Below, piece after piece: positions 129-8,849 of a DNA stretch of 64,000 bases. Position 1 is the stretch's first letter. Each line of letters begins with the position of its first letter. The translations under genes were made by a program, and so were the position numbers. The notes below the pieces were generated by a model. That model did no database searches. It was not told the DNA's origin and worked only from the letters and a program-made list of their open reading frames with translations. The stretch comes from Methanocaldococcus sp. 28A. Its GTDB lineage: Archaea > AGJL01 > Methanococci > Methanococcales > Methanocaldococcaceae. The stretch is from the NCBI GenBank assembly GCA_049852185.1, contig CP187540.1; one strand, 5' to 3'.

Positions 129-1018
129 TATAGACATTTAAAATATTTACCGATGAGATTGACAGTATAGACTACATTGGGATTGGGCGTCATCAGTTTC
201 AGCTCCCCTCTGAGTTCATCGGGGAGCATATCATCAACCTCCGCCCCAGACACCTCCGCTTTTTAATTTTTTAATTAATTTAAGTCCTCTTTTAAAGATG
301 TTAAAAGAGCCTACTAACTGTCTATTAAAATACTTTTTACAATTAGAGCAATAAACAACCTGCCCTTCTTGAGATCCATTTTACTCCCGCATATAGGACA
401 GGTTGTTGATGTATAATGTGGATTTACATAAAAAACGATACTCTTATACTCTAACTGTCTAACTATTCTCTTCCAATCTGTTCTATCTAATTCTCTATGA
501 AATTTCGAATTTTTATCGTACATATTGAATTTATTTAGGTCTTCGAAGATAAAAATAGCATTAGGGAATAAACGAGATAATTGAGTAGTTAATTTATTGA
601 TAAAATCCTTAACTCGATTTTTTCTCCTATTTAGGTATTTTTCTAATAACTTCCCTATTCGTTTAGGAGATTTTTTATAAATAGATTTCAACTTATCAAT
701 GATAATGTCATAAACCACTTTAATTCTATGGAGTTTGGATAAATCAACTCTAATCCAACCTTCTGTTAGATGATATATATCGAGAGATTTTAGATTGCTA
801 TCAACTCCGACAATTATTTCTCTATTCGAATGGTCTATAGATTGTTTGAAAGTTAGATAAGCAGATTTCTCCTTCAAAATGATTTCGCCAATCTCCCAAT
901 CTTTAACCTTATCAAAAAACCATTTATCTTTAATGTTTAAAACTAAATATTCCTTTCTTGGTTTAATAGTAATTTTAATTTCTCCTTTTTCTTTATTATA
1001 CATATTGGACAGACACAC
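129..1018 (-). pseudogene. tnpB: TnpB (IS200/IS605/IS607 RNA-guided endonuclease) pseudogene, N-terminally truncated and frameshifted
   Basis: ORF 314..1018 has RuvC-I IVGVDSN, RuvC-II IFEDL and YTSTTCPICG; near 376 the second CxxC and RuvC-III continue in another frame (SQEGQVVYCSNCKKYFNRQLVGSFNIFKRG). Confidence 0.85.
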
Positions 1019-7418: not shown

Positions 7419-7871
7419 ATTAAAATAAGACCGATCCGGTATGGAAACATTTGTTAAATAAACACTTATCCTTTTTCCCATCTTACATCACCTCATTAAA
7501 ATAAGACCGATCCGGTATGGAAACGAAATTTGATAATATCGTAAATATAAAATTTTGTTCATTAAAATAAGACCGATCCGGTATGGAAACATTTTTTTAA
7601 AGCTATAAGTAAAAAACCTTATTTTAGTTAGCCAAAATAATTAAAATAAGACCGATCCGGTATGGAAACCTCATTTTTACGCTTATGAATGTCTTGGCAG
7701 GAGCATTATTAAAATAAGACCGATCCGGTATGGAAACATAAACAGCCCATTTAAGACCTCATACTGCTCTTTTATTAAAATAAGACCGATCCGGTATGGA
7801 AACCTCTTTTTTGCCATCTCCATCTCCCTGTCCTCAGACTTATTAAAATAAGACCGGTTCGGTATAAAATA
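7419..7871 (+). CRISPR. CRISPR array 1: 7 repeats (last degenerate), 6 spacers
   Basis: ATTAAAATAAGACCGATCCGGTATGGAAAC at 7419, 7495, 7561, 7640, 7708, 7774; degenerate copy at 7842; spacers 46, 36, 49, 38, 36, 38 nt. Confidence 0.98.
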
Positions 7872-8140
7872 ATTATTATTTCTTTTTCTTTTTTATTAAT
7901 TTGAAAAAATTCTTTAACAAAAAATCTTTTTATTAAAATACAGAGTATTAAAATAATTAAATTTATCTATTTTCTGTTGTATTCCAAAAATATTTCACAC
8001 CTATAAGTAATAAAAAAGATAACATAAATAATAACTTCTATATCTGCTTTACAAGATTCCAGAAGTTTCTCTTAGAGCATAATATTGAACACAATAAAAA
8101 CGTCCGTCAGACATCCTCAAACGTGGCAAGACTTTTGCAC

Positions 8141-8345
8141 TAATTATATTTAACATGGTATGACGGCTCTCCACCCTAAAGGGCGGAGTTTCGTGAGAGC
8201 GAGCCTAAGCTCACCCTCTCCGGCCCCGCCAAAGCCACTACCCCTATCCCATTAGGGATTCGGGGCTACGCTTTAACCATTTCCATGTCCCCAGCGGTGG
8301 AGTTTTCGATAACCCCACCAATTAATAACTTGGACTGGGGACATA
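8141..8345 (-). ncRNA. Putative TnpB omega/right-end guide RNA (scaffold 8345..8161 plus ~20-nt flank-derived guide)
   Basis: GC-rich multi-hairpin island; TTTTATATA box at 8375-8367 about 25 nt upstream; contains CCCCGAATCCC..GGGATAGGGGTA and ends GAAACTCCGCCCTTTAGGGTGGAGAGCCGTCA. Confidence 0.65.
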
Positions 8346-8492
8346 AGTTTAGTTTATTAATTCGGGTATATAAAAGTTATGTTTGTCCCACCCACCTCCC
8401 CTATCTCCTTGCTTCGCAAGGAGAGTAATGAAATCTGAAAGATTTCATCTGAATTCATCACCGCCCTAAAGGGCGGTGCTTTCTTAGCGACA
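8161..8492 (-). mobile_element. Non-autonomous IS200/IS605-type element (PATE-like) with both end hairpins and no ORF
   Basis: Hairpins CTCCACCCTAAAGGGCGGAG (8169-8188) and CACCGCCCTAAAGGGCGGTG (8459-8478); minus strand reads TTTAT|TGTCGCTAAGAAAGCACCGCCC...GGAGAGCCGTCA|flank. Confidence 0.78.
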
Positions 8493-8849
8493 ATAAATGG
8501 TATAAATAATGCCAAAGGTATCAAAAATTCCTTACAATATTTACTTCTATCTTACCATAGGAAAAGTTGAACGGGTAAATAATGATGTTGAATATCGATT
8601 AGATAGATTTATAGATTGATTGAAATCACTAATGTGACTTCAAAGCTCTCCGCTACGCTTCAATTGGCATAACAAAATAAAACTTCATCGTTATTTAGAT
8701 TATAGGATTCCTTATGATGTTTATTATAGAAAATACATTTAATAATATGGATGTGATTTCATGAATTATTACTTGCGAAATAATTTCAAGATACAACACC
8801 TAAAATGCTTAATTTAAATTAATAAATATATATTTTTATAAGACAATAA

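Follow-up and report, generated by a model that had tools for sequence, protein, structure and literature searches.

The window analysed here, a 64,000-nucleotide stretch of the Methanocaldococcus sp. 28A genome (G000:C1:352001-416000), carries on its minus strand, at 8160..8499, a gene-less element of the IS200/IS605 family that is real, well delimited, mobile-looking and recently active. This mini-element is probably a PATE, that is, a gene-less IS608-like IS200/IS605 derivative, equipped with a promoter and an omega-RNA scaffold and served in trans by the TnpA and TnpB resident in the same genome. Observed directly are its homology to a full-length element, its limits, its copy number, the covariation of all its helices and the fact that the genome encodes one cognate TnpA and one cognate TnpB. 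As PATEs with omega RNAs used in trans have already been published, the finding extends a known principle; the kind of element is known, and it is the RNA family, which is absent from Rfam, and a 5' hairpin derived from tnpB that appear to be uncatalogued.

A whole-genome search recovered three full copies and one truncated copy of the mini-element, 97-98% identical and set in unrelated flanks. The other full copies, B and C (C1:741682-742023 and C1:1422318-1422659), are 98% and 97% identical to the window copy, and the element, 340 bp long, is delimited by the points at which this identity ends and the flanks begin to differ: the common block opens at CATTTATTGTCGC (8499) and closes at ...GAGAGCCGTCAT (8160). 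The original prediction, which had drawn the limits at 8492..8161, caught a conserved block that is real but not its true extent. The fourth copy breaks off after ~190 nt, and short pieces were also found. All that the flanks of copies A-D have in common is a TTAC-type motif at the left, with neither target-site duplication nor terminal inverted repeats. With its 340 bp and a longest overlapping mechanical ORF of 55 aa, the element is, like a PATE, too small to hold a transposase gene, and domain searches returned no TnpA or TnpB match within it; the earlier statement that no ORF is present holds for frames of at least 60 aa, but mechanical ORFs of 31-55 aa do span the region. GC content is 0.45-0.65 across the element, compared with 29.7% for the genome, and a search of the plasmid collection gave no match. 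The features listed at the outset (left hairpin, small hairpins, box, 10-bp stem and terminus) all lie on the minus strand where they had been placed, and the proposal of a protein-free IS200/IS605 derivative in several copies with variable flanks was borne out by searches of this genome and of its relatives.

Abutting the left end on the minus strand is a TAM-like or target tetranucleotide (8500..8503) that reads ATAC here, the family consensus being TTAC. TTAC stands directly 5' of the left end in 13 of the 14 mini-elements of the genus, the window copy (ATAC, 8503-8500) being the sole exception, and it also precedes the left end of all four full-length elements in which that end is visible, of all seven mini-elements of G036 and of the one in G039. 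TTTAT, previously taken for the target, is refuted in that role by this TTAC-type motif and by its own position (8497-8493), which falls within the element; relatives read CATTAGTTG there, most of them with TTAGT. The left end (8459..8499, minus strand) consists of CATTTATTGTCGCTAAGAAAG followed by the sub-terminal hairpin CACCGCCCTTTAGGGCGGTG (8478-8459), and 48 of 48 bases are identical to the left end of a full-length tnpA-tnpB element (G000:C1:831404-831451). The two small hairpins form a 48-nt double-hairpin module (8404..8451, minus strand), defined by comparison with the full-length element, other mini-elements and HgcC-type elements. The full-length left end lacks the module, as do 4 of 13 mini-elements (two in G007, two in G013); it is present in all six HgcC-type elements and confined within G000 to the mini-element copies, and from these sequences it looks like an optional insertion. 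Between it and the promoter lies a conserved G-rich box, TAGGGGAGGTGGGTGGGAC (8385..8403, minus strand), common to the full-length left end, the mini-elements and the HgcC-type elements. Modules of this double-hairpin type, 45-48 nt long (CAG, hairpin, TA, hairpin), were seen inserted beside or within hairpin loops at three sites: examples are window 8404-8451, the SL1 loop (see below) of L025 and L055, the 5' hairpin loop in most mini-elements of relatives, and L056, a tnpB gene of G014 that holds one such insertion in frame (15 codons). By analogy, these modules look like tiny mobile inserts aimed at hairpins, and the SMR-A repeats of Haloquadratum likewise target PATE palindromes (PMC3119063).

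The host of the window copy is a decayed copy of another multi-copy repeat, which makes up both flanks (~7970-8159 and 8500-8830), has at least 12 paralogues in G000 and in its better copies encodes an HTH/PAX-like protein of 130-140 aa; it is probably the remnant of another insertion sequence. Two paralogues are contiguous over the insertion point (...GGCATTATTTAT-TTTTCTTGC-TTAAATATAATAAG... and ...GGCATTATTTACAC-AATATTAAATAG...), and an uninterrupted paralogous site reads ...TTTACAC|AATATTAAATA. These uninterrupted paralogues support insertion between TTTATAC and ACCATGTTAAATA, at a level of identity (~80%) that cannot set the junction to the base. No orthologous empty site was found: in relatives the flanks of copy C are found at differing chromosomal locations, and the relatives hold no joined site for copy A, whose flanks beyond the tRNAs are repeat sequence. 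The notion that the flanking repeat is a 'long repeat' leader of a CRISPR array was discarded, since its paralogues encode the HTH/PAX-like remnant and do not adjoin arrays.

Profile searches of G000 returned exactly one Y1 TnpA (139.5 bits) and eight matches to the TNB domain of TnpB. On the minus strand at C1:~831452..829313, a full-length element comprises, in this order, a left end, tnpA (143 aa), tnpB (392 aa) and a right end, and the 392-aa TnpB next to TnpA contains both OrfB_IS605 and TNB domains. The mini-element has sub-terminal palindromes at both ends (8478-8459 and 8188-8169) that are related to those of the full-length element; the two thus have the left end in common and homologous right ends, and the cognate tnpA-tnpB element from which the mini-element had been proposed to borrow its enzymes exists in the same genome. 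Being protein-free, the mini-element probably relies on the enzymes of this copy. The homologies of left end, TATA box, hairpin and core identify it as the parent without tnpA, the 5' part of tnpB and the middle of tnpB, and the best explanation of these sequences is that two internal deletions in a tnpA-tnpB element gave rise to it. The junction GGTTAAAG|CGTAG (or variants of it) is common to all mini-elements, which suggests a single ancient origin.

The resident TnpB (G000:C1:829716-830888) retains the RuvC-I Asp and has the RuvC-III motif NADVN, with Gly at the position of the RuvC-II Glu of AsCas12f and its relatives; large TnpB clades with this Glu-to-Gly change have been modelled to use an alternative Glu and to stay active (PMC10691335). 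Its gene contains a 317-bp internal tandem duplication (G000:C1:829400-830000), the first copy of which stops the ORF at ...NPERDRDM*, making it 17 residues shorter, and the second of which holds the original 3' end and the omega-RNA region. Considered together, the RuvC-II Gly, the duplication and the published modelling make activity of the resident TnpB plausible. In the window copy itself, cleavage by TnpA or recognition by TnpB might suffer from the ATAC target or from a G-T wobble within the right-end hairpin. Two further traces of tnpB were noted: a fossil of a full-length element at G000:C1:523547-523710, with a degraded tnpB 3' end, an SL1 into which a double hairpin is inserted, and a right end reading ...GGGCGAAAAGTTGTCAT, and, at window 353-475 on the minus strand, a TNB-domain match (30 bits) in a 240-aa open frame of a different TnpB family.

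The predicted archaeal promoter (8367..8383, minus strand) consists of a BRE-like region and the TATA box TTTATATA (8374-8367), assigned from its conserved position and the M. jannaschii rule; the box TTTTATATA reported earlier at 8375-8367 was confirmed there. The octamer TTTATATA is exact in 7 of 13 mini-elements and has one mismatch in the remaining six, in a constant alignment column, and it sits 22-24 nt upstream of the base of the 5' hairpin. The M. jannaschii version of the box is TWTATATA; of 134 promoters mapped there, 126 have their start site at 23 +/- 2 nt from its 3' edge (PMC2699501). The mini-element is accordingly spaced like a mapped promoter of that organism: it is predicted to keep a methanogen-type TATA promoter, as originally proposed, with a transcript start at ~8344-8342. 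Because such an octamer is common in an AT-rich genome, the weight of this assignment rests on its positional conservation. The TATA region is similar to the sequence upstream of tnpA in the full-length element of G014; inspection by eye revealed no TATA box upstream of the hairpin within full-length tnpB.

The 3' 112 nt (8160..8271, minus strand) form an omega-RNA-type core with covarying helices, the homologue of which in the full-length element comprises the tnpB 3' end together with the right end, so that the predicted guide-RNA scaffold is indeed found at the omega-RNA position. Core and full-length element agree at 83 of 121 columns of their alignment, and the stems carry compensating changes. 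By analogy the core may be used by the resident TnpB, although this limited identity to the scaffold of that TnpB itself counts against such use. It consists of the covarying helices SL1 (8265-8241), SL2 (8237-8221) and SL3 (8218-8195), the right-end hairpin CTCCGCCCTTTAGGGTGGAG (8188-8169) and the tail AGCCGTCAT (8168-8160), and the previously listed CCCCGAATCCC...GGGATAGGGG and terminal GAAACTCCGCCCTTTAGGGTGGAGAGCCGTCA were confirmed in the 185-nt segment. Across 19 sequences 95.9% of cells are paired, against 36-55% in slid controls, 10 of the 31 pairs show double changes and the score is reached in 0 of 500 shuffles, a count that, because the aligned sequences are related, shows consistency with the structure and not a probability. 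The right end reads GTCAT in 13 of 13 mini-elements and 6 of 6 full-length elements, the base that follows it varying (A, T or C), and a covariance model of the core matches both mini-elements and the 3' ends of full-length tnpB genes. A candidate pseudoknot in which the SL2 loop would pair with the 3' tail, through three invariant pairs and one covarying pair (GC in 11 sequences, AU in 6), is consistent only in part, and F_G006 does not fit it. A kissing contact between the internal loop of the 5' hairpin (CCAAG) and the SL2 loop (CTTGG) was set aside, as it fits some sequences but fails in those reading CCACG, and a linker-SL2 pairing in the single-sequence MFE fold was dropped because it is not conserved among relatives.

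The 185-nt RNA from 8344 to 8160 has a folding energy of -96.1 kcal/mol (z = -6.97, with none of 200 shuffles as good), compared with -72.8 kcal/mol (z = -4.5) for the opposite strand. Numerous G-U pairs, 28 of 29 at one position for instance, are compatible only with the minus strand, and these pairs and the modelled energies favour it as the putative RNA strand. With the GC peak, the fold z-score and its recurrence in the genome and in relatives, the structure is far beyond chance. If the transcript reads through the right end, the flanking ACCATGTTAAATATAATTAG (8140..8159, minus strand) would, following the TnpB paradigm, be the candidate guide. Its first 16 nt match the genome exactly at no site but the occupied one itself, and the same is true of each guide; no second exact target exists in the genome for the guides of the four copies, the best candidate being a site for guide A with one mismatch at C1:75207, which lacks TTAC. 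Guide A also has a chance near-match at 1504, 5400 and 9296 of contig C2 of G000 (10,393 bp), at a spacing of exactly 3,896 bp, which suggests that C2 may consist of ~2.7 tandem copies of a 3.9-kb unit or be an assembly concatemer.

Ahead of the core lies a nested hairpin domain (8285..8344, minus strand) in which the outer stem ATGTCCCCAG/CTGGGGACAT (8344-8335 / 8294-8285) encloses an inner stem-loop. It begins exactly at the predicted transcript start and is homologous to an internal segment of tnpB (G000:C1:830480-830410, codons ~135-160), where the hairpin is the most stable local structure of the full-length element (-37.5 kcal/mol per 70 nt); no comparable structure occurs at that position in five other tnpB loci of G000 (three sequence types). 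An alignment of 31 sequences (21 mini-elements and 10 full-length genes from eight genomes) has 96.0% of its cells paired, against 35-53% in slid controls; both partners have changed in 14 of 20 pairs, and the covariation score is reached by 0 of 500 shuffles, which, the sequences being related, again shows consistency with the structure and not a probability. Four unrelated sequence versions of the outer stem exist, a complete replacement, and the 13-nt internal loop (AGTCCAAGT...) is almost constant even where no protein is encoded. The added 5' domain that had been suspected is thus real, conserved and marked by strong covariation. As the hairpin has been kept with full stem replacement in tnpB genes and in mini-elements of two Methanococcales families, we tentatively entertain the possibility that it is a working second domain of the guide-RNA system of this TnpB clade, our best guess being that it protects or processes the precursor RNA. 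If it controls precursor stability, processing or loading, the mini-elements would be self-expressing two-domain guide genes and, with the HgcC elements described below, would account for a set of GC-rich archaeal RNAs, long orphans, as mobile TnpB guides.

Rfam offers no credible family at the locus (the best are RNAI, GcvB and similar, at 12-20 bits). HgcC (RF00062), reportedly discovered in 2002, has no match in the window at its gathering score (50 bits), nor any across 7800-8800 when E is allowed to reach 10, and the RNA part of the mini-element differs from it as a payload even at that E value. A study of MJRE is said to have described palindromic repeats with coding potential in M. jannaschii. 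The only HgcC matches of G000 reach 22-25 bits, against the threshold of 50, and fall on the left ends of three mini-elements; the score of the window copy is 23.4 bits over 8437-8544, that is, on the left end and outside the RNA part. Among 10 loci of relatives that match only the first 113-136 nt of the mini-element, however, seven hold a full HgcC RNA (97-131 bits at six loci and 66.6 at the seventh; range 66.6-130.8 bits). Ahead of these RNAs stands a left-end module sharing 79-96% identity with the mini-element's first 113-136 nt; at six of these seven loci HgcC starts 24-25 nt past the same TATA box, the seventh (L052) having a TATA box of its own behind an inverted tnpB, and each HgcC RNA closes with a right-end-like hairpin and GGTCAG where the flanks diverge. 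Standing behind the same left-end and promoter module, the HgcC genes are therefore sister gene-less elements with another RNA payload, and the guess that the mini-element may relate to the Hgc RNAs stands for a sister family on a shared module but not for membership, the HgcC threshold not being reached.

Full-length HgcC-type elements were also seen, at L052 (G008:C67, 251-1610) and G011:C25:1450-1788; in them a 358-aa tnpB lies inverted between the left-end module and the HgcC promoter, with its last codons entering the G-rich box of the left end, so that the nuclease and its presumed guide RNA, HgcC, would be divergently transcribed. HgcC expression has been verified by northern blot, and three HgcC RNAs of T. 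kodakarensis start in transposase genes (PMC4247193); a right-end-like tetraloop in HgcC, as well as an expressed PATE RNA, was reported in 2015, in a work that lists the function of HgcC as unknown (PMC4615843). The chassis common to the mini-element and HgcC appears to be uncatalogued, a literature search for HgcC together with TnpB having found one paper, from 2015. With HgcC tied to the same transposon chassis, the proposition that HgcC is a mobile TnpB guide becomes directly testable.

The core covariance model finds matches in 14 of 40 genomes of the order and in three of five genera. G036, from another family, shows a large burst, with 39 matches, and has the hairpin-plus-core design in both gene-less and tnpB-bearing forms (seven mini-elements and five full-length elements among the 12 matches retrieved); its ends differ, reading TTAC|GATAAACCGCC... 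and ...CGTGGGAGTAGGTCAG. Relatives of the mini-element in congeners are about 67-72% identical, and a cognate TnpB (80-93% identical over nearly its full length) is present in G006, G007 (two copies), G014 and G016. In G012 (89% complete) and G013 (86%), which have mini-elements, neither TnpA nor TnpB was found.

One genome raises the question of whether the RNA works independently of TnpB: G002, which is 99% complete, keeps one mini-element with no Y1 TnpA and only a distant TnpB. Such persistence would be expected of an exapted, HgcC-like small RNA, a regulator or a decoy of the TnpA hairpin, for which the transposon ends are a vehicle only; this explanation would also accommodate the strong structural selection on a 5' hairpin that has no known place in omega RNAs, the unknown function of the HgcC RNA behind the same promoter module, and the effect of PATE RNA overexpression on growth (PMC4615843). 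We nevertheless regard it as unlikely, because mini-elements tend to be damaged where the helper is absent (G012 lacks the 3' strand of SL1, and G002 has one mismatch and two wobbles in the inner stem), because the end of the scaffold always coincides with the transposon boundary, and because the mini-elements of G007 have acquired the core of the resident element. Five mini-elements in that genome have a core 120/121 identical to that of the resident full-length element while keeping a mini-type 5' hairpin, which indicates recombination that keeps the mini-element matched to its helper.

The structure might alternatively reflect only the needs of the parent, the mini-element being an inert deletion remnant that has lost transcription and function. 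In its favour, there are plainly defective relatives (half of SL3 is missing in G016_b and G016_c, the hairpin loop in G013_c29), and G000 holds the decayed tnpB fossil with the same right end (C1:523547-523710). Against it, descendants of one junction pair have diverged to ~70% identity in two families with 96% of stem cells still paired, the 5' hairpin has had its outer stem wholly replaced, the TATA box and its spacing have been maintained where no protein is encoded, and mini-elements have recently multiplied within G000, G007 and G036; we consider inertness quite improbable. A functional part in the neighbouring CRISPR array, as leader, tracr-like RNA or guide store, was suggested by the ~290 bp between the right end and the last degenerate repeat of the array (~7866-7840) but is very improbable, and the proximity, originally given weight, appears incidental, for only one of the four copies lies near an array (for the others the nearest repeat matches are 3.6 kb and 10.6 kb away, both distances being to one lone repeat, and 55 kb away), both flanks belong to the decayed HTH-protein repeat, which is separate from the array, and the mini-element has no similarity to the CRISPR repeat.

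For a PATE served in trans, the reading we prefer, the following mechanism can be proposed. The TATA box would start an RNA at ~8344 that would run through the scaffold, past the right end and into the flank; TnpB from the full-length element would bind the scaffold and use the flank as guide, and TnpA would provide mobility in trans. After TnpA had excised the mini-element, TnpB would cut the resealed donor joint (TTAC-type motif plus flank), and repair from the sister chromosome would restore the mini-element. A model of excision-joint cutting and restoration has been published for PATEs in general, which are described as elements that 'often encode omega RNAs' acted on in trans (10.1101/2023.03.14.532601), and a PATE-derived RNA is expressed in H. 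salinarum (PMC4615843). The mini-element would then represent a natural guide-RNA gene split from its nuclease, with its own predicted promoter, in hyperthermophilic methanogens and with its parent in the same genome.

IS608 of Helicobacter pylori has TTAC 5' of its left end, a right end in a TCA-type tetranucleotide, and tnpA and tnpB in the same orientation, and its left and right hairpins are similar to those of the mini-element family; the latter differs in its archaeal host, its TCAT right end and a NADxN-type TnpB in which Gly replaces the RuvC-II Glu. As in the omega RNA (reRNA) of ISDra2 and the Geobacillus stearothermophilus elements, the scaffold overlaps the tnpB 3' end, stops at the right end and would use the flank as guide, and the target motif is the insertion motif; in the mini-element, here judged from its sequence, the scaffold is uncoupled from tnpB, has its own predicted promoter and is preceded by a 60-nt nested hairpin. 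The haloarchaeal PATEs, as described in PMC3119063 and PMC4615843, are likewise gene-less IS200/IS605 derivatives with sub-terminal palindromes, without inverted terminal repeats or target duplication, and some of them also retain an extended terminal segment with some of the C-terminal coding sequence of tnpB. Other small repeats insert in their palindromes, and one PATE RNA (VNG_R0052) is expressed (PMC3119063, PMC4615843). The mini-element has a methanogen TATA box, whereas the haloarchaeal sotRNAs are described as lacking a classical BRE-TATA upstream (PMC4615843), and it is set apart from the haloarchaeal PATEs by its origin in the Methanococcales and by a second conserved RNA domain, derived from the middle of tnpB.
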